62,838 bases of DNA from a virus (lineage: Duplodnaviria; Caudoviricetes): IMG/VR virus record IMGVR_UViG_3300042444_000200, positions 1-62,838 of that record. The stretch is one strand, 5' to 3'. The first letter of the stretch is position 1, and every line of letters starts with the position of its first letter. The translations under genes were made by a program, and so were the position numbers. The notes beneath the pieces were generated by a model that was given only the letters and a program-made list of their open reading frames with translations, was not told where the DNA came from and did no database searches. Shown piece by piece: positions 22,880 to 42,900 of the stretch.

Positions 22880-22921
22880 AGAAAAAAGTCACGAGACTGC
22901 GGAAACACACGGCGTTATACA
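22880..22921 (+). promoter_or_regulatory. AAAAAGTCA-box with a downstream -10-like hexamer
   Basis: AGAAAAAAGTCACGAGAC is 17/18 identical to 24664-24681. Confidence 0.5.
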
Positions 22922-24663: not shown

Positions 24664-24705
24664 AGAAAAAAGTCACGCGACCTAGCAGGACGCCAGCACT
24701 ACGCT
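24664..24705 (+). promoter_or_regulatory. AAAAAGTCA-box with -10-like TACGCT
   Basis: Repeat of 22880-22897, upstream of an HTH gene. Confidence 0.5.
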
Positions 24706-34450: not shown

Positions 34451-34601
34451 TTCGCACTTCCTTTTGCTGGGATTGGAGGCCAGCCTTGACCTCCGCTAAC
34501 TCTTTCATGGCCCTAGCCAACTGGGCTTCGAGCCACGCCATACGCATTTCTGCGTAGCGGACGTACTTCTCATCAGCGACCTGCTGTTTGTCTTCGCTCA
34601 T
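34353..34601 (-). CDS. Small coiled-coil protein
   Basis: Overlaps both neighbours. Confidence 0.5.
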   Translation of the reverse strand: MSEDKQQVADEKYVRYAEMRMAWLEAQLARAMKELAEVKAGLQSQQKEVRNETTCDCGYCVAPHCRTGRGDSVHRGDADQED

Positions 34602-36150
34602 TTGCCACCCTGTTGAGTTCGCGTTTCACCGCCTCCACCAGCCACTCATTGCCGGGCCTCTTGCTCGCCCCCTTGATCCAGCCCTTGAGGTAGTCGGCCG
34701 GGATCATGCGGATCGGGATTCCCTTATAGGGCCCCCAGATCATGCGGGCCTCTCGCCTCTTGGGGATGTCGCTCGTGCCCTTCTTGAAGGCGTCCACCCA
34801 CTGGCTGTCCACCTCCGCACGGAACACCAGCGGGCGGCGGCGTGCCAGTTCTTCCTGACGGTGGATCACTGCTGCCTGCCGCTCCTGCTCCATCTCGGCA
34901 GCGACGGCTGCGTCCACATCCTCCATCGTGACCGGCTCGCCCCTGTCGATCATGTCCTCGACGTACGCCTTACGCTTCTTGGTGGGCGGCACGAACACAT
35001 CGACGGCACTGCAAATGCAGTGGCACTTGCTGGCGTCGGTGTAGTCGTACACATCGCAGTTGGGCTTGGCGTCGTTGCGGATCGCAAGGCGGCGGCTGTA
35101 GTCGCTCGGTGCATCCTTGAACACATCGTTGGACGAGGGCCGGGCACCACGCCCCAGCATCTGGATGTACTTGGGCAGGCTCTTGGTTGGGCGAAGGTTG
35201 TGAATCTCGCCTACCTGTGGGCTGTCCCAGCCGGTAGTAAGGCAGCCCACGTTCACGATCAGTTCGGCGTCGCCCTCCTCGAAGCGGGCCAACTGCTCGA
35301 CCCGCTTCTCCTTCGGCATCTCGCTGTCAACGACGGCACACTGGATGCCGTGCCGGTTCTCAAGGATGTCCTGCATGGCCCGTGCATTGCGGATGCCGGT
35401 CGTGAACACCACGCCCTTCCGCTTGTGGTTGGCGGCGATCATGGCCGTCTGCTCCAGCATCACGCCCTCCTCGCCCATGATCCTGTCGAGTTCCTCAACG
35501 CTGAAGTCGTGGGCACCCGTGCTACCGAAGCGACTCATGTCGAGTTTCTTCAGCACGATGCGTCGGATGTTGAACGGAACCAGCCACCCCCACTCGATGC
35601 CCTGCCTCATTCCGATTGACACTGGGTGGCAGTCGTACTGGTGCAGCGGCGACACGCCGGTCGTGCGGTAGTGGGGGGTGGCTGACATGCCGATGATCTT
35701 CGTGCCCGCTGCCTTGAAGGCGGCGACCAACTCAGCCTGACGGGGGCCAAGCGAAGCGTGTGCTTCGTCGATGATCAGCAACTCCGTCTTGCCCAAGAAC
35801 CTCTCGTACCTGTTGTTCGAGATGAGGCTCGCCAGTGACGCCACCGTGACCGGGCACTCAGGGTCTGCCATCAGCGGGCCCTGTTCGATCTCCGGGACGT
35901 ACCGGCGATACCTCTTGACGGTGGACACCACCTGCCCGACTGTTGCGTCGTACGGCGTGGAGATGAGCACCTTGTCAAACTGCTCCGAGAGGGCGGCGGC
36001 TATCGCCGTCTTGCCCATACCCGTCGCCACCTCGATGAACGCACTCTGCCGAGAGCGGAGCGCGTTCATGCCACCGTCTACGGAGTGCTGCTGGTAATCA
36101 CGCAGCAGCATCTTCCGCTCGGATGGCTTGTCAAACAGGGAGAGAGTCAT
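34573..36150 (-). CDS. Superfamily 2 (DExH, ResIII-like) helicase
   Basis: LRDYQ, ATGMGKT, DEAH, SATP, TTGWD, QMLGRGAR; C-terminal WGPYKG..I..IP..YL. Confidence 0.93.
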   Translation of the reverse strand: MTLSLFDKPSERKMLLRDYQQHSVDGGMNALRSRQSAFIEVATGMGKTAIAAALSEQFDKVLISTPYDATVGQVVSTVKRYRRYVPEIEQGPLMADPECPVTVASLASLISNNRYERFLGKTELLIIDEAHASLGPRQAELVAAFKAAGTKIIGMSATPHYRTTGVSPLHQYDCHPVSIGMRQGIEWGWLVPFNIRRIVLKKLDMSRFGSTGAHDFSVEELDRIMGEEGVMLEQTAMIAANHKRKGVVFTTGIRNARAMQDILENRHGIQCAVVDSEMPKEKRVEQLARFEEGDAELIVNVGCLTTGWDSPQVGEIHNLRPTKSLPKYIQMLGRGARPSSNDVFKDAPSDYSRRLAIRNDAKPNCDVYDYTDASKCHCICSAVDVFVPPTKKRKAYVEDMIDRGEPVTMEDVDAAVAAEMEQERQAAVIHRQEELARRRPLVFRAEVDSQWVDAFKKGTSDIPKRREARMIWGPYKGIPIRMIPADYLKGWIKGASKRPGNEWLVEAVKRELNRVANERRQTAGR

Positions 36151-36467: not shown

Positions 36468-36642
36468 CTGTCGCCTCCTTGAAGAAATCGTTGAACGTCA
36501 CCATCGCCTGCAACGCCCTCACCTCCGTAATGAGGAGAGGCACCCATGCCCGTGTGATCTGCACCGTCAGCGTGGGATTCAGAACCACCTCGTCGCTCGC
36601 GGCCCATTCATCGAGCCGCTTCAAGTCGCTCTCTTGGATCAC
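36199..36642 (-). CDS. Hypothetical protein
   Basis: GTGA-coupled to the ERF gene; its 3' part overlaps the next gene. Confidence 0.45.
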   Translation of the reverse strand: MIQESDLKRLDEWAASDEVVLNPTLTVQITRAWVPLLITEVRALQAMVTFNDFFKEATDEGATSELRDSVPASKEVGDGGSVTGGGDEPERDHPVPVPAENGTRRRRRARRPKAPAEGRSDTGGDSSEGGGDQGGVDAGGSSPQVGG

Positions 36643-37328
36643 GCTTTTGACTCCGTGTTGGGCGGGGTCTTGGCCCGCAACTTCTCACGCTCCTTCTTCA
36701 GCAACTCCATCTGGCTCTCGGTCATCTCGCCGCTGCCGACACGCATGGCGACGCGGGCAATGACCTCGTCGCGTTCCTGCTCCGTCGAGACGGCCTTCAA
36801 CTTCTTGAGTGCCATCTCCTCCAGCCGGAAGGACTGGGCAGACGAGGTCTTCGTCGCCTCTGTCGCAGCCACGCCGTCGTCATCGTTCTCCGCTGCGATG
36901 CCGCAGAGGCAGGCGATGTGGAGACGACGCATGTAGGTGCAGTAGGCGAGGTACGCCTGCGGCTTCATCGGGTCGGCAGCGATGCGGCTGACCGACCGGG
37001 TGAACTGGCCCGACTTGTGACCCAGCGTCGTGACGAGGAACTCCTCCTCGCCCACGATCTGCGTCGTGCTCTTGAGAGCCAGCCCGTGAGCACTGTTGAT
37101 CGGACGAACGGCATCGAGCAGGGCATCGACGGTGGCGTACATCCCGAATGCACCCTTCGCATTCTTGAGTACGGCCGGGTACTCGCCCTGCGCCTTCGCA
37201 AGGTCTTCGTACAGCAGTTCAGTGGTCTCCGACTCGTTCGCATATGGATCGAACGGACGGTGGCGAATCGGCTTGTTGGTCGGCACGAACATTGGGGTTT
37301 GCATTTCTGCGTCCTTTGGGGTTTCCAT
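36639..37328 (-). CDS. ERF-family single-strand annealing protein
   Basis: LAKAQ...K...YAT...HGL...TTLGHKSGQ...TYMRR...GIAAENDDDG. Confidence 0.88.
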   Translation of the reverse strand: METPKDAEMQTPMFVPTNKPIRHRPFDPYANESETTELLYEDLAKAQGEYPAVLKNAKGAFGMYATVDALLDAVRPINSAHGLALKSTTQIVGEEEFLVTTLGHKSGQFTRSVSRIAADPMKPQAYLAYCTYMRRLHIACLCGIAAENDDDGVAATEATKTSSAQSFRLEEMALKKLKAVSTEQERDEVIARVAMRVGSGEMTESQMELLKKEREKLRAKTPPNTESKA

Positions 37329-37333
37329 TCCTC

Positions 37334-38326
37334 TCACTCCTCGTCGCCGTAAACGTGCGGCGGCATGTACAGTTCGGTGATCGCTCCGTACGAAGACGGC
37401 ACCCACGAATCGAGTGCCATGCGGTCTTCGTATTCCTCGATGAGCCGGTCGAGTTTCCGCTGGCCCATCAGCACGAAGCGGCGGGGCAGCGTCACGCAAT
37501 GCACCTCGCACTCGCCCACCGTGCTGGCGACAACGAAGGTCATGGGCTCGTCGGAGAAGCCAGCGAGAGAAGCACCCTCGCGGTAAACGGCGGCTTGCAA
37601 TCCGTAGCCGTACTCACGGCACGAATGCCACCACTGCTTCAGCGGGAACTGGTCGCGGGTGGTCTTGAAGTCGATGAGCCTGCCGTCTTCGAGGACGGCG
37701 TCGGGGCGGCAGCGAAGGCCGGTGCCGGTGCCACGCTTCCAGATGATCGAGATTTCCTTCTCGGCCACCTGCTCCCACAACTCGACGAAGGCACGGTTCG
37801 CCATCGCCTGCTTGTGCTGGGCACGGAGTGTCTCTTCGTCGGACGGGGTGACGAGGATCGCGTCAGGCCCCTGCTCCTTGACCCAATCTTGGGCATCCTG
37901 CTTTGTGGAAAGCCCGCCGGAGCCAGTGCAGAACTTGGCAGGAACCCGCTTGGCTACGTCCCAGAAAACGGACGGCCCGATCTCCCAGAAGGAGTGGAAC
38001 TTTGTTCCGTATTGAGTCGCCTCTGTCCCGGCGTGAGACTTGTGGCGAAGGACATGGTGCCGGTGGAACTGGGCAGGGCTCTTGCCCAATACCCGCAGGC
38101 TCGATGTCGAGAGTTCTGGTCGGGCGTGGTAGGCGGCGTTCGCCTCACCTCGCACGACTGCCACGAGAGTCGCGGCAGGGCATCCCTCAAAAGTCGGGGC
38201 GATCGGATTCGAACCGACGACCTCTACGTCCCGAACGTAGTCGTCGATGCCCTGCGTGAGTGGATCTGTCGTGGCGAGGAGGTTCTTCGTCATGTCAGTC
38301 TCAGTGCTTGCGTCTTCTGCTGTCAT
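37334..38326 (-). CDS. RecE/exonuclease VIII-like PD-(D/E)XK nuclease (DUF3799-like); start at 38326, 38293 or later
   Basis: YHA...LSTSSL, GTKFHS, RCRPD, IDFKTT, YGLQAAVY. Confidence 0.88.
   Translation of the reverse strand: MTAEDASTETDMTKNLLATTDPLTQGIDDYVRDVEVVGSNPIAPTFEGCPAATLVAVVRGEANAAYHARPELSTSSLRVLGKSPAQFHRHHVLRHKSHAGTEATQYGTKFHSFWEIGPSVFWDVAKRVPAKFCTGSGGLSTKQDAQDWVKEQGPDAILVTPSDEETLRAQHKQAMANRAFVELWEQVAEKEISIIWKRGTGTGLRCRPDAVLEDGRLIDFKTTRDQFPLKQWWHSCREYGYGLQAAVYREGASLAGFSDEPMTFVVASTVGECEVHCVTLPRRFVLMGQRKLDRLIEEYEDRMALDSWVPSSYGAITELYMPPHVYGDEE
38194..38240 (-). other. attP core: 3' half of tRNA-Pro(CGG)
   Basis: CTACG-TTCGGGA-CGTAG anticodon arm, AGGTC, GTCGG-TTCGAAT-CCGAT T-arm, CGCCCCG-A. 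No 5' half. About 145 bp from the integrase start. Confidence 0.88.
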
Positions 38327-38384
38327 CGGTATCTTTGCTGAACCCGGTACGGGGGTAGTGTACAGCGGTTCAGTAGGGTCGTCA

Positions 38385-39218
38385 ATGATAGGGTTAGCGG
38401 AAAGGTATTTGATGGGGAGGGATGTCTCGCGTGGTCACGCGGGCAACATCAGGCGAGCGGCTGCTCGGATGTACGCGGCAGGCATCACGCCTGACAACAT
38501 CGACGGGCAACTGGTCACCACTTGGCTCTCCTCCTTGAGGGCTACGCTGTCGGCAAGAAGCGTTTCGAGTGAACGCAACCTTGCACTCACATTGTGGAAG
38601 TATGGCTACGACGAAGACCTTGTCAAGAATCCGGTTCGCGGAGTTCAGAAGATCAAGGTGCCTCGCCGTGTCACTCGTGCCTTCACACGCCATCAGTGTA
38701 CGGATGCTGTCAAGCAGATTTCTTCTTCGGACTTTGGGAAGTTCAGGAAGAGTGGATGCCCGAAGTCTCTATGGCTAGAGGCTTGGTATCGGACTGCATA
38801 TGAGACCGGCATCAGATTCACCGACCTCTATATGCTGCGGCACGATTCTTTAGTGGACGGCGGCATCGCCATCGTCGCCAGCAAGACCAACGGCATCGTC
38901 ATCAAGCGGATCACCGCCGAGACGCAGGGCCTGCTCGACCGTCTTATAGAGATGTCACCGGACGGCACCGTCTTCAGTTGGGCTGTCTCTAGGCGTTGGG
39001 CCTTTGCCAACATCAAGGCAGCGTTCAAGGCAATCGGTCTGGATACTGGGCGTACCCAGTGGCTTCGTAGGTCTGGCGCTACGCACGCAGAAATGGCACA
39101 GCCCGGAAGTGCGGCACGTTATCTTTGCCACGCGACGCCGGGACTGGCCGAGCGCCACTATTTGGATCACACGCAACTTTTGGGACAGGCACCCGCTCCC
39201 CCTCCGCTCGATCAGTAG
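38385..39218 (+). CDS. int: Tyrosine recombinase / integrase
   Basis: TGIRFTDL (R), SKT (K), WLRRSGAT, LCH, HY (Y); adjacent to a tRNA-derived att site. Confidence 0.88.
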   Translation: MIGLAERYLMGRDVSRGHAGNIRRAAARMYAAGITPDNIDGQLVTTWLSSLRATLSARSVSSERNLALTLWKYGYDEDLVKNPVRGVQKIKVPRRVTRAFTRHQCTDAVKQISSSDFGKFRKSGCPKSLWLEAWYRTAYETGIRFTDLYMLRHDSLVDGGIAIVASKTNGIVIKRITAETQGLLDRLIEMSPDGTVFSWAVSRRWAFANIKAAFKAIGLDTGRTQWLRRSGATHAEMAQPGSAARYLCHATPGLAERHYLDHTQLLGQAPAPPPLDQ

Positions 39219-39264
39219 AAGAAAGTCGCTGGCCTGAAAGTGGGAGTGGGCGTAGATTCAGTTC

Positions 39265-39600
39265 TGTGCCGATACGACTGAAGGGTCGGCATGAGAGCGG
39301 AGTCTCCTTCAGCGGAGCCCGTCCCGATCAAAAGGGGCGGGAGTGGTGGTGGTGCCACAAACGACTCCAACGCTAGCCCGCAGACCAATGGCGTAAGTGG
39401 CAGGGGGTGCGAGCCCCGAAAGAAGTGGTCAGCCTCCTGCCCCGTCACGCAGGAGGTCGCACTAAAACCGACCCGGCTCCAACGATTCAGAGCAAGGCGG
39501 CGTGCGTAGAGGGGTCGGCGTCGGATCGCCCATCTATGGGAACCGACGGTGGCTCTTTCCCTGCGCACGTCTCCCAACCACTCACCGTACGATTCAGTTG
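39265..39600 (+). ncRNA. Candidate structured non-coding RNA or origin
   Basis: No convincing ORF; H-type pseudoknot plus six hairpins; -10-like TAGATT at 39253-39258. Confidence 0.5.
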
Positions 39601-39655
39601 CGTCAGTTTGAGTTTGAGTACAGAAAGAAGCGCACGCTTTATAGAGGGGCATGTC

Positions 39656-39901
39656 ATGGATTCTTCTGACCAGTCCGAAGCAAGGTTCGTCTACCGGCCG
39701 TCAAGCAGGGTTGCCCATGTGTGGGTGGGCGAAGACACGGCCTGCCGGATGTGGTCAACGGGCGGGCTACGCCAGCACAAGTTCGTGTTCGCCGAAGACG
39801 CTGGCGGCAGGGAGACCTGCAACAACTGCAAGAACTGCGCATGTGAATCGGACGAGTCGGAGAGGATGTCTCACCTCCGCTCGATACTCACCTGCCCATG
39901 A
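39656..39901 (+). CDS. Small Zn-binding phage protein
   Basis: AHVW.GEDTACRMWSTGG...CNNC; GAGG SD. Confidence 0.7.
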   Translation: MDSSDQSEARFVYRPSSRVAHVWVGEDTACRMWSTGGLRQHKFVFAEDAGGRETCNNCKNCACESDESERMSHLRSILTCP

Positions 39902-42900
39902 GCCCTAGTTGCTCACGCCGCTTCTTCGCCTCGCGGCTGTCCTTCCCGAGCCGCCGGTTGAGTTCGTACACCTGACGCAACTCTGGCGAGAGCGTGAGGA
40001 GTTCGTCCTCCGCGATGCTGACCGAGTCGTACGATCTGGTGTGGCCCTTCAGCAGTTCCCTAGCCTGACGCTGGGCATCTCTCGCTGCGTCCTCTGGCGT
40101 GGCCGTCTTGACTTGCAGGCCGGTGGTCGCACTGAGGAAAGCCCTAGCAGCCCTCTCTTCGGGCGAGGCACCGCTTCGCGTGTCGGTCATTTGCGTGACG
40201 ATCTTGCCCAGACCAAGCGGCAGGGCAGGTGCCACGAAGCGGCTCGCCATGTTGATCGCGTCTGGGGCCTGCGCTTCATCGTCTCCGGTTGCAGACTGGA
40301 TGAGTCGGTCGAGGGTAGTCGGCACCTCGTTGATTCTCTTCCCGGAGAACAGGTCGTTGCCGGAGAGCAACTCGATAGACGCCTTCGGGATCGGGGCGAG
40401 TTTCGACCCGTAGCCCTGAAGCGTGGCAATGAGGCTCTCGTACGGATCGACCCAGCCGTTCGCATCCTTCTTGATCTTGCCCGCGTTGATCGCGTTGATG
40501 CCGGGAAACTCGATGTTGGTGAGGAAGTTGTTGTCGCCAAGCGGGATGTACGGCGGGAGCCTGCGGATGTGCTCCGGCAGGTACGGATCGCCCTGCTCTG
40601 ACGGGTCGCTGGATCGAGCCAGCATCCGAATCATCTGACCTGTCCGGCCGCCCGGCCTGCGAACGAGGTCATCTACCGTGCGACCAATGCTGCGGCTCTC
40701 GTAGGTGTAGAAGGGCACGAGGTAGTCGCGTAGAGACTTCTCCACTGTGGTCAGTTGGGAGTAGTCAACGTGCTGCCGCTTCACAAGACGAGCCGCTTCG
40801 AGCGGGTCGATGTTCTGGCGAAGAAGCCCCATGTACCCGGTGAGTCGGGTGAAGGTGTCGGACTTGTCGCCAGCGACCTCCGCCGCACGATAGAGCGGGT
40901 TGCGCGTCTTCAGTGCGTCCTGTCCCCACGCTTTGGTGGCTGGGTCATACACGCCACGAATGGAGAGCAGGTCGCTCCACTGCGATGCAGGGTTGTAGAT
41001 GTTCTCCTGCACGCTTCCCGGCATGAGGGTCTTCACAGCCTCGCCGGTGCGGTCTCCGATTTCCGTGCCAAGCGTGCCCATCCCCTGAAGGACACGGGAC
41101 TCGCCGATGTCCAGCATGAACGCCTTCAGGCGGTCTGCCTCTGGCAGTTTCTTGTAGCGGGGAATGTCGGCCAGTCGGCTCGCAAACGCACGGTAGTTGT
41201 CCTTCACGCCGTGCATCAGCGTGGATGCGTCTGCCATTCCCGGAAGGGTGGAGTTGCCAGCGAGGATGAAGTTGCCGATTGCGCTGGAGTACAAGTCGCG
41301 GGTCAGTCGAGAACCAGAGAGTAAGGCGTTCGCCTTGAACAAGTTGTTGTACGACTTGATGTACTTGGCAATCGTGCTCTGCGCCTGCGGGCTCTTGTAG
41401 GCGTCGGCCATCCGGCTGATGTTGTCGATCACATCGCGTGACACGGACTGGTTTGCCAGTTCGTCTGTCGTCACGCCCATCCGCTTCGCCAACTCGTCCA
41501 TCGCTCCCGGCTCAAGGCCGAGCCGAGTGGTCAGTGCTTCGCCGACAGAGATGTGACCGCCACCCGGAACGTGGGTGTACGGCATGTCCCGCACCTGCCC
41601 CTGTACGGAGTCGAGCAGTGCGTCCACCATGCCGTGCTTGCGTCCGCGACCCTGCATGTACTGGGCCACGCTCTCAAGCGGGTGCGTTCCGAAGATGGCC
41701 TTCGGCCCATCGAGCCGGTTGAGCATGCGCGTCAGGCCGAGCGCATTGTCCATGCTGTACTCAGGGGCACCGGCAGGCACCGCACCATTGACGATGCCGT
41801 AGATTTGCTGCGCCACCTCGTCGTCGGTCGCCAGTCCTACGCCGTCCGCCCCAACGCCACTAAGCGTACGCCCCTTGCCAGCGAAGCGTGCGTCGGCAGA
41901 CAGTTCCTGAAGTTGGGCAAGGCCACCGGGCAACTTGTTGTAGTCGGCCCGGTGAAGCATGTCGCCCGTCTCTGGGTCGAACACGCGACGAGAGCCGCCC
42001 TCGTTGTAGCCGGGAATGTTCTCCTTGTAGGGCAGGTAGCCGACACCGTACGGGTGTTCGAGTTCAGCAGACGGTACGCCGAGCCGCTTGCCATCGGCAA
42101 GAATCTCCTGCCGGATGTTGCCCCACTCATCGACCGCCTTCTTCACGGCAGGGGCGTTGCCCATCAGGGTGCGATCTGCACTGGTGGCAATGCGTGCGGC
42201 GGGCGTGTCCTCCATCAACCGCCCCATCGCCTCGCCGATCTCTGTGGTGTGCAGGTTGGTCGGCGACATGGTGGCGTCGAAGCCAATGCGGTCTACGAAC
42301 TCACGCCCTGCCTTTGCCTCGCCGATGTCGCCGTATGCGTTCGCCTTCTTGGCAATGGCCTGACTCAGGGCGTCTGTCTGACCGCTCACCGACTTGTCTG
42401 TCAGTGCTGCGTAGCCCCTTCCGACAGGGTTCCAGCGGAGGTATGAGCCAGCCCTGTCCATTGCGTCGCCAAGAGCGGCCCCACCCGGAACGTCGAAGGC
42501 CCCGAAGTTCGTGGACGAGAGGGGCATGGCAAGGCCGAAGTTCCGGCCCAGCGTGTCGTCGAGCAGGTCGTTCGGGATCGCAGCACCACGCGGCAGGTCG
42601 AGCGCACCTCGAACCTTTTCCAGCATGGCGGGATCGCTGCCGATCACATCGCCTAGCCGCGAGTTCCGTAGCGAATCTCGTGCCCCGACAAGCGGCCTGC
42701 CGTAATGCTCCGCGTATTTCGCTGCCGCCTCAAGTGCGGCTTGATCGGTTGAGACATCGGCCCCCATGTCCGAGAGCGTTCGTTTTGCATACGACGGCAG
42801 GTCGAGCGGCGCGCCGGAGGCCAGCGCCCGAGAGGCGTCGTCGGATAGCGAGCGGCTTGCGTAACGTGCCGCATCGTCCAGTAGGCCAGCAGACTTGAGG

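Follow-up and report, generated by a model that had tools for sequence, protein, structure and literature searches.

A predicted double-pseudoknotted non-coding RNA in the gap behind the integrase gene of a lake-water temperate phage

What occupies the 437 bases between the integrase gene and the next small gene of the phage IMGVR_UViG_3300042444_000200? The window analyzed here is the complete IMG/VR virus record (62,838 bp, linear, CheckV completeness 100), and the runs that contain this stretch are lake and freshwater metagenomes (24 rows from 21 studies, among the runs listed). An earlier reading of the letters alone, here called the sequence-only reading, had proposed a promoter-preceded, pseudoknotted RNA in this gap that could be an integrase partner, a ribozyme, or a ColE1-like replication primer. 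The observation behind that proposal is confirmed, and its interpretation is partly supported. We favor, with a probability of roughly 0.6, the reading that positions 39265-39590 on the plus strand are a gene-sized cassette for a ~325-nt stand-alone, trans-acting non-coding RNA with two pseudoknots. Judged by sequence comparison, the RNA would belong to a family of which some temperate lake-water phages of ~62 kb have a single copy in each genome. The parts of the site needed at this point are:

about 38385-39218, plus strand: short tyrosine integrase, with its stop codon TAG at 39216-39218
39219-39655: gap of 437 bases between the integrase and a small Cys-rich gene
about 39265-39590, plus strand: predicted structured non-coding RNA of ~325 nt, with approximate ends
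39264-39401 and 39418-39590, plus strand: its 5' domain and its 3' domain
39656-39901, plus strand: small Cys-rich gene of 81 amino acids (aa), a neighbour outside the RNA

The gap is non-coding. A 146-aa open reading frame (ORF) on the minus strand spans it (39212-39652), with a mean codon log-odds of -0.104, and the corresponding values are -0.045 for a 72-aa ORF and -0.090 for the upstream part of a 164-aa ORF; the flanking genes score +0.06 to +0.26. The gap ORFs had no Pfam or PHROG match and no tblastn match in nine syntenic loci. Furthermore, the element has indels of 1, 2, and 12 nt among the homologous loci L027, L033, and L034, including frame-breaking ones. The claim that the gap holds no credible gene was thus borne out, and neither coding-type composition nor a conserved reading frame nor homologues at the protein level were found.

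The gap also matches no catalogued RNA. Rfam 15 gave no match at the gathering score across the whole window, nor a tmRNA match there. At E ≤ 10, the region 38900-39950 returned just mir-1537 (17.1 bits against a threshold of 63) and snoZ178 (14 against 100), both meaningless, and no ribozyme family. On the homologous loci, Rfam gave tRNA-like matches elsewhere only and no ribozyme family at E ≤ 1, and no riboswitch family was matched in the window or the homologues. ARAGORN identified no tRNA or tmRNA gene, neither anywhere in the window nor at the site of the element in its relatives, and the GenBank phage collection contained no DNA match to 38200-40000. The accessible parts of the literature searched, including PMC10690425 and 10.64898/2026.09.22.753630, describe no such RNA; integrase, helicase, and lysogen are not mentioned in the accessible text of the former, nor integrase and tyrosine recombinase in that of the latter. 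The predictions of PMC10690425 from viral contigs run to more than 10,000 candidates, and its supplementary lists might include the motif. With that proviso, the comparisons indicate an RNA family that is absent from Rfam and new, in line with the unassigned structured RNA that had been proposed.

Homologues were reached through the proteins. With the integrase alone as query, nothing was found in viral, metagenome, or genome collections, and the C-terminal 500 aa of the neighbouring 1124-aa protein found nothing either. A protein search yielded 72 integrase relatives (28-96% identity), and an alignment of 24 of them used as query led to nine metagenome and eight viral loci with integrases of 40-62% identity. 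The synteny exonuclease (minus), integrase (plus), gap, large ORF (minus) is kept wherever the flanks are long enough, and the gaps fall into types without mutual blastn match:

type A gaps: L010, L011, L017, L018, and L025
type B gaps: L012, L013, L020 (identical to L021), and L022
type E gap: L019
L014 (identical to L023 and L024): gap that by eye shares the plan of the window

By eye, L014 has a 6-bp hairpin with a 13-nt loop nearly identical to that of the window on a wholly different stem. One word of the loop finds its complement downstream, with the pairing preserved by a compensating change; then come AGCGGAG and, ~240 nt further, CCCTGCGCAC. Two gapped patterns made from the words of L014 and the window retrieved 12 stretches, nine of which carry the element, i.e., L027, the group L030 = L031 = L032 = L033 = L036, L034, and L028 and L029, which are of the L014 type. 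The other three (L035, L037, and L038) lack the first stem and are chance pattern matches. The family thus comprises five distinct sequences (window, L014, L027, L033, and L034). As nhmmer and blastn with the gap of the window as query missed L014, much of the signal lies in the structure. Exact and gapped DNA patterns taken from helices P7 and P1/PK1 (listed below) had no match in viral contigs. Loci L002-L009, found via the Cys-rich protein, showed no similarity to the gap and no match with E < 9 to the covariance model described next.

This model (R1; 152 positions, 21 pairs lying in P1, P3, the outer part of P2, and P4) covers the 5' domain and was built from L027, L033, and L034 only, with the window left out. 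In a search space of 200,095 nt from 23 sources, it matched window positions 39264-39401 on the plus strand over model positions 1-152 (58.8 bits, E = 2.6e-13) and L014 over the whole model (44.8 bits, E = 9.8e-10). The remaining matches had E ≥ 0.33, and none fell within a type A, B, or E gap. A model of all five sequences (R3), applied with filters off to the type A, B, and E loci, reached at best E = 0.13 on the wrong strand, so that the RNAs of these types are not members of the family.

Covariation was counted in the five-sequence model alignment, with the helices PK1 and P6, neither of which is in the model, added as extra brackets. The 32 pairs comprise 151 cells, all of them standard pairs, and double changes occur in 17 of the 32, compared to a mean of 5.2 in shuffled alignments; none of 500 shuffles reached 17. 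In controls with the partners slid by 1-3 columns, 31-38% of the cells were paired and 1-4 pairs had double changes. A separate string check of eight helices (P1, PK1, P3, P2, P6, and P4, plus P5 and P7) in the five sequences revealed complementary arms except for one mismatch. The covariation among homologues that the sequence-only reading had proposed as a check is therefore present. MAFFT with RNAalifold on two or three sequences was discarded, as it produced partly wrong registers and an artefactual pairing of the 5' and 3' parts. It remains to consider a missed protein gene (the 146-aa minus-strand ORF or one on the plus strand) or chance hairpins in a G+C-rich spacer. The ORF does span the whole gap and G+C-rich DNA folds well by chance; however, given the coding scores, the missing protein matches, and the frame-breaking indels on the one hand and the shuffle result on the other, we regard this explanation as extremely unlikely.

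The structural signal sits on the plus strand. There, 39255-39600 folds with -154.4 kcal/mol (z-score -4.25; none of 100 shuffles as good), and on the minus strand with a z-score of -1.28 (10 of 100 shuffles as good); L014 gives -3.31 and -2.33, respectively. The assignment also follows from the R1 match on this strand and from the G-U pairs, which make up 6 of the 151 paired cells. The helices, all on the plus strand, are:

39267-39272/39286-39291: P1 hairpin (TGCCGA/TCGGCA) with the conserved 13-nt loop TACGACTGAAGGG
39278-39284/39306-39312: PK1, pairing the P1 loop (CTGAAGG) with CCTTCAG, after which AGCGGAG is conserved
39299-39304/39363-39368: P3, long-range helix (GGAGTC/GACTCC)
39318-39325/39334-39341: P2 hairpin (CCCGTCCC/GGGGCGGG)
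39353-39358/39397-39402: P6 (TGCCAC/GTGGCA), which crosses P3
39370-39373/39391-39394: P4 hairpin (ACGC/GCGT), whose loop holds the conserved AGCCCG
39404-39407/39414-39417: P5 hairpin (GGGG/CCCC), followed by the conserved GAAAGAAG at 39418-39425
39432-39440/39449-39457: P7 hairpin (GCCTCCTGC/GCAGGAGGT), whose loop holds GTCAC
39499-39571: P8, long hairpin (39499-39509/39561-39571, 39510-39517/39550-39557, 39519-39524/39543-39548, and the tip 39529-39532/39537-39540), with the conserved motif CCCTGCGCAC at 39559-39568 in its 3' strand

The window carries P1, PK1, P3, P2, P6, and P4 together with the conserved words, with collinear anchors. P1 has seven pairs, four with double changes, and is 100% paired with three different stems across the lineages. 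PK1, the H-type pseudoknot of the sequence-only reading, stands: its seven pairs are 100% paired in all five sequences, with one double change (A-U to U-A) and one change between G-C and G-U. P3 exists in four sequence versions, each perfectly complementary, and five of its six pairs have double changes. P2 is present in all five sequences and differs in sequence and length each time (two double changes in the outer four pairs). The arms of P6 are complementary in five of five sequences, and its four aligned pairs are 100% paired, two with double changes; since P6 encloses the 3' strand of P3, the RNA would contain two pseudoknots, the second of which had been missed. P4 shows double changes in three of four pairs. 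The P5 stem differs by lineage and is followed by GAAAGAAG or ACAGCAG, and the P7 arms are paired at 9/9, 7/7, 6/7, 7/7, and 6/6 positions in the five sequences, all of them different. The junctions and loops share the words UAsGACUGAwGGG, AGCGGAG, UGGUGG, CAAAC, AGCCCG, GAAAGAAG, CGAC.CGG, and CCCUGCGCAC, and the comparison as a whole points to a conserved fold with invariant unpaired junction words.

The eight word pairs listed by the sequence-only reading are all complementary in the sequence, and six stand as stems, including CGTCGG 39519-39524/CCGACG 39543-39548 as part of P8. The other two, GGAGT 39340-39344/ACTCC 39364-39368 and CCGACCC 39468-39474/GGGTCGG 39512-39518, are probably not the pairs of the native fold: ACTCC pairs with GGAGTC 39299-39304 in P3, covarying in five of five sequences, and GGGTCGG is part of P8 according to the minimum free energy fold, the alignment to the 3' model, and a natural variant (see below).

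For the 3' domain, a second covariance model (R2; 166 positions, 29 pairs) was built from L027, L033, and L034. It matched L014 with E = 2.3e-10, and both the R2 alignment and the minimum free energy fold give the P8 arrangement listed above. Of four runs compared with the window, X7 contains a variant strain; gaps in contig cover were not counted as evidence. The X7 integrase has 12 changes in 728 nt, with nine of the ten listed at codon position 3. Within the RNA, 39197-39348 has two changes, both outside helices, and 39417-39614 has 13 substitutions and 11 gap letters, the gaps clustering in the loop 39484-39496. Both of the two stem substitutions keep the plus-strand pairing, i.e., 39517 G>A (G-U to A-U) and 39546 A>G (A-U to G-U), and the former would break the discarded CCGACCC/GGGTCGG pairing. 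We estimate the 3' end near 39590.

Around P8, a direct repeat ACGATTCAG lies on both sides (39483-39491 and 39588-39596), and GATTCAG occurs again at 39255-39261; the repeat CGATTCAG (39483, 39590) shows no enrichment across the genome (3 found, 2.1 expected). At the corresponding places, L014 and L027 have CCUCAAGAGG and CCUAAGAGG, quasi-palindromic words that vary concertedly from phage to phage.

How would the RNA be made? Two features precede it:

39220-39228, plus strand: degenerate A-rich box AGAAAGTCG, immediately 3' of the integrase stop and weak on its own
39230-39258, plus strand: putative promoter, with -35-like TGGCCT at 39230-39235, a 17-nt spacer, and -10-like TAGATT at 39253-39258

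The window (TAGATT) and L014 (TACAAC) both have a -10-like hexamer 8 nt ahead of P1, with a -35-like hexamer 16-17 nt upstream of it (TGGCCT and TTGCGT, respectively). By eye, TTGAC(G/C/A) occurs shortly past the integrase stop in most of the other integrase relatives and precedes a TAnnnT-like hexamer. The box itself differs from AAAAAGTCA at two of nine positions, and TAGATT follows it after 24 nt, compared to 23-24 nt in three exact AAAAAGTCA copies (by eye). This spacing, pointed out by the sequence-only reading, holds; the box as such is not enriched when one mismatch is allowed (6 found, 4.92 expected, 42 of 100 shuffles reaching 6), and the promoter passes no sigma-70 scan (see below). 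The L027-type copies (L027, L033, and L034) show no promoter-like signal, so that read-through transcription must be possible. We infer that the RNA is transcribed rightward from the putative promoter, by read-through from the integrase gene, or both. Elsewhere in the window, the exact AAAAAGTCA copies (16398-16406 minus, 22883-22891 plus, and 24667-24675 plus) are intergenic and lie ~60 nt before an ATG by eye; three are present where a rough base-composition estimate expects ~0.1, so they probably serve the phage as a promoter or regulator site. A Sigma70_r4 domain is present in one of the phage proteins.

The genomic position of the RNA bears on its role. Upstream of the integrase gene lie:

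34573-36150, minus strand: helicase
36639-37511, minus strand: ERF
37334 to about 38170, minus strand: PD-(D/E)XK exonuclease
38186-38236, minus strand: tRNA-Pro(CGG)-like fragment

L014/L023/L024 share the arrangement of the window, with the integrase gene directly before the RNA. In the L027-type loci, P1 starts at the last codons of a 529-aa helicase, with the stop codon UAG within the P1 loop; this helicase is an orthologue of that of the window (37% identity over 521 aligned positions), and the integrase gene is ~4 kb away on the opposite strand. Exactly one RNA copy was identified in four of five related virus records searched and none in a complete type B phage (G005). Integrase relatives of 53-62% identity have unrelated RNAs or none at the integrase-downstream site.

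An RNA partner or guide of the integrase, comparable to IS110 bridge RNAs, would account for the adjacency in the window and L014/L023/L024, and the 5' strand of P8 (39505-39531) in the window resembles part of the tRNA-Pro-like att fragment at 38197-38236 (CGTAGAGG; TCgGATCGCCC). This resemblance was not seen by eye in L014 or L027 and could be due to chance. As three of the five distinct family members have the RNA behind the helicase and far from the integrase gene, the integrase-partner role put forward by the sequence-only reading is disfavored. The similar integrases that accompany unrelated RNAs or none argue in the same direction, as does the recombinase being a tyrosine integrase, a class that, to our knowledge, does not use guides. 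We consider such a role extremely unlikely. Variable position, stand-alone copies, and a single copy per record suggest a self-contained, movable cassette rather than an obligatory integrase partner.

The other two roles named by the sequence-only reading were guesses. A replication element, either a ColE1-like primer transcript or an origin, would fit the proximity to the helicase, ERF, and exonuclease module and the position directly behind the helicase gene in the L027-type loci. However, G-U pairs and compensatory changes argue for an RNA fold rather than DNA sites, iterons or an AT-rich stretch were not seen, the position varies between relatives, and some complete relatives such as G005 lack the element, which makes this reading highly improbable. 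A self-cleaving or otherwise catalytic RNA that processes its own transcript would be well placed at the helicase stop codon (L027-type) or directly behind the integrase gene (window), the L027-type copy being embedded in an operon without its own promoter. It would also fit the pseudoknotted core with invariant unpaired nucleotides. Pistol ribozymes share the topology in which the P1 loop forms a pseudoknot. Against this stand the Rfam searches of window and homologues, which returned no ribozyme family, and a size far beyond that of known small ribozymes; we judge this reading improbable.

A number of results weigh against a stand-alone, trans-acting RNA family. The covariation rests on five distinct, partly related sequences, to which the tool's warning on relatedness applies. 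L027, L033, and L034 are mutually 89-95% alike, leaving effectively three lineages, and four of the six counted helices belonged to the aligning model, so that the counts lean towards structure. L033 (3798-4130) folds no better than shuffles (z-scores of -1.22 on the plus and -0.17 on the minus strand), so that the family could not have been recognized from z-scores alone. The window escaped R2 at default filter settings; when the filters were switched off for 39300-39800 (501 nt), the best match of the 3' domain (P7, the three-part P8, and CCCUGCGCAC) was 39418-39590 on the plus strand with 14.6 bits and E = 1.8e-4. As this weak match spans the whole model and is collinear with the 5' domain, the 3' half of the window appears to keep the family plan in diverged form. 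A sigma-70 consensus scan of the RNA strand passed no promoter in the window, L014, L012, or L033, the failures being spacers of 15-19 nt or a last base other than T, and no terminator-like site was found in the window, nor in L033. None of the 24 runs listed with the stretch is an RNA run. The trans-acting role is itself something we infer. Finally, a same-strand ORF lies 65-95 nt downstream of the RNA in the window and the L027-type loci, an arrangement just as compatible with a leader.

Because same-strand ORFs follow in two of three lineages, a cis-acting leader is the main rival, although an unlikely one. The 5' domain would be the sensor and the 3' domain the expression platform of a riboswitch or attenuator acting on the next gene (39656-39901 in the window). 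The 5' domain is indeed far better conserved than the 3' domain (E = 2.6e-13 compared to 1.8e-4), the conserved purine-rich junctions resemble binding pockets, and in the L027-type loci a same-strand ATG with AGGAG is located about 95 nt past the 3' motif. However, the ORF downstream of the RNA in the window is unrelated to that in L027 (no tblastn match, no shared Pfam family), no terminator-like hairpin was detected in the window or L033, and the Rfam searches matched no riboswitch family. L014/L023/L024 have no plus-strand ORF of at least 70 aa between the RNA and the convergent large ORF, so that a downstream gene is not shared by all members, and the RNA of L014 looks like a stand-alone RNA.

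For the stand-alone RNA that we favor, the following course of events can be proposed. The RNA would be transcribed rightward, from the weak promoter 8 nt before P1, by integrase read-through, or both. The P1 hairpin at its extreme 5' end may stabilize it; a 5'-terminal hairpin is the classical protection from 5'-end-dependent decay. The doubly knotted 5' domain would be the conserved business end, with 3' hairpins that vary, and the folded RNA might work in trans, either as a scaffold that binds a protein or ligand, as a decoy, or perhaps as a catalyst. We take it for an exchangeable accessory ("moron"-like) cassette and expect neither an integrase guide nor an antisense RNA or leader peptide. 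Targets complementary to the 3' motif within the phage numbered 44, with 55 expected.

Other relatives carry different RNAs at the same site. Type B gaps hold a structured RNA (L012 1603-1893, L020 3387-3673, L022 3384-3672, and L013 3392-3670), for which RNAalifold predicts 61 pairs, 12 with double changes, and which has no R1, R2, or R3 match. Types A (L010, L011, L017, L018, and L025) and E (L019) differ again and likewise lack matches to the three models. By eye, the window (39559-39585) and the type A and B gaps have in common the 3' word CUGC(a/c)C(u)CACC after the last strong hairpin, which could be a common end, processing, or recognition signal. Furthermore, an X7 contig matches 39215-39259 and continues with type-A-like sequence directly after TAGATT, suggestive of an exchange of cassettes right behind a common promoter-like stretch. 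A bolder proposal, which we put forward as doubtful, is that the RNA represents a new class of large double-pseudoknotted functional RNAs (ribozyme, ligand sensor, or protein decoy) and that the promoter-bearing integrase-downstream site is a docking place for swapped, unrelated RNA cassettes (that of the window and types A, B, and E).

Regarding the neighbouring genes, the integrase call rests on PHROG_1 "integrase" (7e-14), with a weak Pfam match under the cut-off (E = 6e-4). Residues 14-60 of the Cys-rich protein are matched by relatives in eight viral contigs, and the ORF around the match has 75-90 aa in five of the eight loci (L002, L004, L007, L008, and L009). The comparison indicates a real 81-aa gene with a start near 39656; since the ORFs of its relatives have 75-90 aa, the 164-aa ORF reaching back to 39407 is not an extension of it. 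The gene was not found in the gaps of the integrase relatives. A minus-strand block follows, beginning with the 1124-aa ORF, which ends at 39888; none of the minus-strand proteins of 1124, 774, and 1223 aa could be assigned to a PHROG family, nor the first of them to a Pfam family. A Pfam scan of 45 window ORFs found 11 families, including a Resolvase-domain serine recombinase, CAP, collagen repeats, HNH_3, and DUF2201, and no reverse transcriptase, TnpB/IscB, or Cas domain, which speaks for a self-contained RNA cassette.

The tRNA-Pro(CGG)-like sequence between the exonuclease and integrase genes (window 38175-38255, minus strand) keeps the anticodon arm, T arm, and 3' acceptor, has a perfect 10-nt inverted repeat on its flanks, and falls within the long form of the exonuclease ORF. 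ARAGORN finds a full tRNA-Pro in L019 (2217-2308) and L022 (2332-2400), and L024 (2190-2286) keeps the 5' half and the anticodon arm of the tRNA, followed by unrelated sequence. The sequence is probably an attP core centred on the anticodon arm. As its 36-nt att word had no match in genome contigs, no host was found.

Several known systems resemble the RNA in part. GOLLD and ROOL are likewise big, intricately folded phage-borne non-coding RNAs, some from lake metagenomes, that were found by covariation and whose function long stayed unknown; they measure ~600-800 nt, compared to ~325 nt here, and no Rfam model matches our RNA. tmRNA has a similar length (~350 nt), several pseudoknots, and a frequent link to integrases and att sites, whereas the RNA described here has no tRNA-like acceptor/T-arm ends and no tag reading frame. 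IS110 bridge RNAs (seekRNAs) are also structured RNAs beside a recombinase gene, as in the window and L014. Here, however, the RNA accompanies a tyrosine integrase and does not always lie next to it, and it departs from them in size and in its pseudoknotted fold. No programmable loops matching att sites were recognized apart from the possible resemblance at 39505-39531, in the window alone.

In pistol ribozymes, SAM-II, and preQ1-II, a hairpin loop likewise pairs downstream and junction nucleotides are conserved; our RNA exceeds them several-fold in size, contains a second crossing helix, matches none of the families, and has no conserved gene downstream. ColE1 RNA II is another folded RNA of a few hundred nt driven by a promoter (a putative one here), but our element varies in position, is not in all complete relatives, and comes with no evidence of an origin. 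The closest parallel in behaviour may be prophage "moron" loci and small RNAs, which also lie at the integrase end, have their own promoter-like signal, and are swapped (in part, PMC7067206). Known prophage small RNAs are mostly short base-pairing RNAs, in contrast to the large, tertiary-type fold predicted here, for which the phage shows no enrichment of complementary targets.

It is rare for a large RNA to have a conserved tertiary-type fold, and most such RNAs whose structure was solved proved to be machines (ribozymes, riboswitches, scaffolds, or cages). The candidate family has two pseudoknots and invariant junctions, is backed by strong compensatory evidence from few sequences, and clearly behaves like a cassette in abundant freshwater phages. 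A covariance model is ready for finding more members and, via prophage copies, the host. The finding raises the question of whether temperate phages trade RNA-only accessory genes as they do protein morons. If the docking-site proposal is true, such phages would draw on an RNA-only accessory gene pool, which may serve, e.g., counter-defence or superinfection immunity in lysogens.

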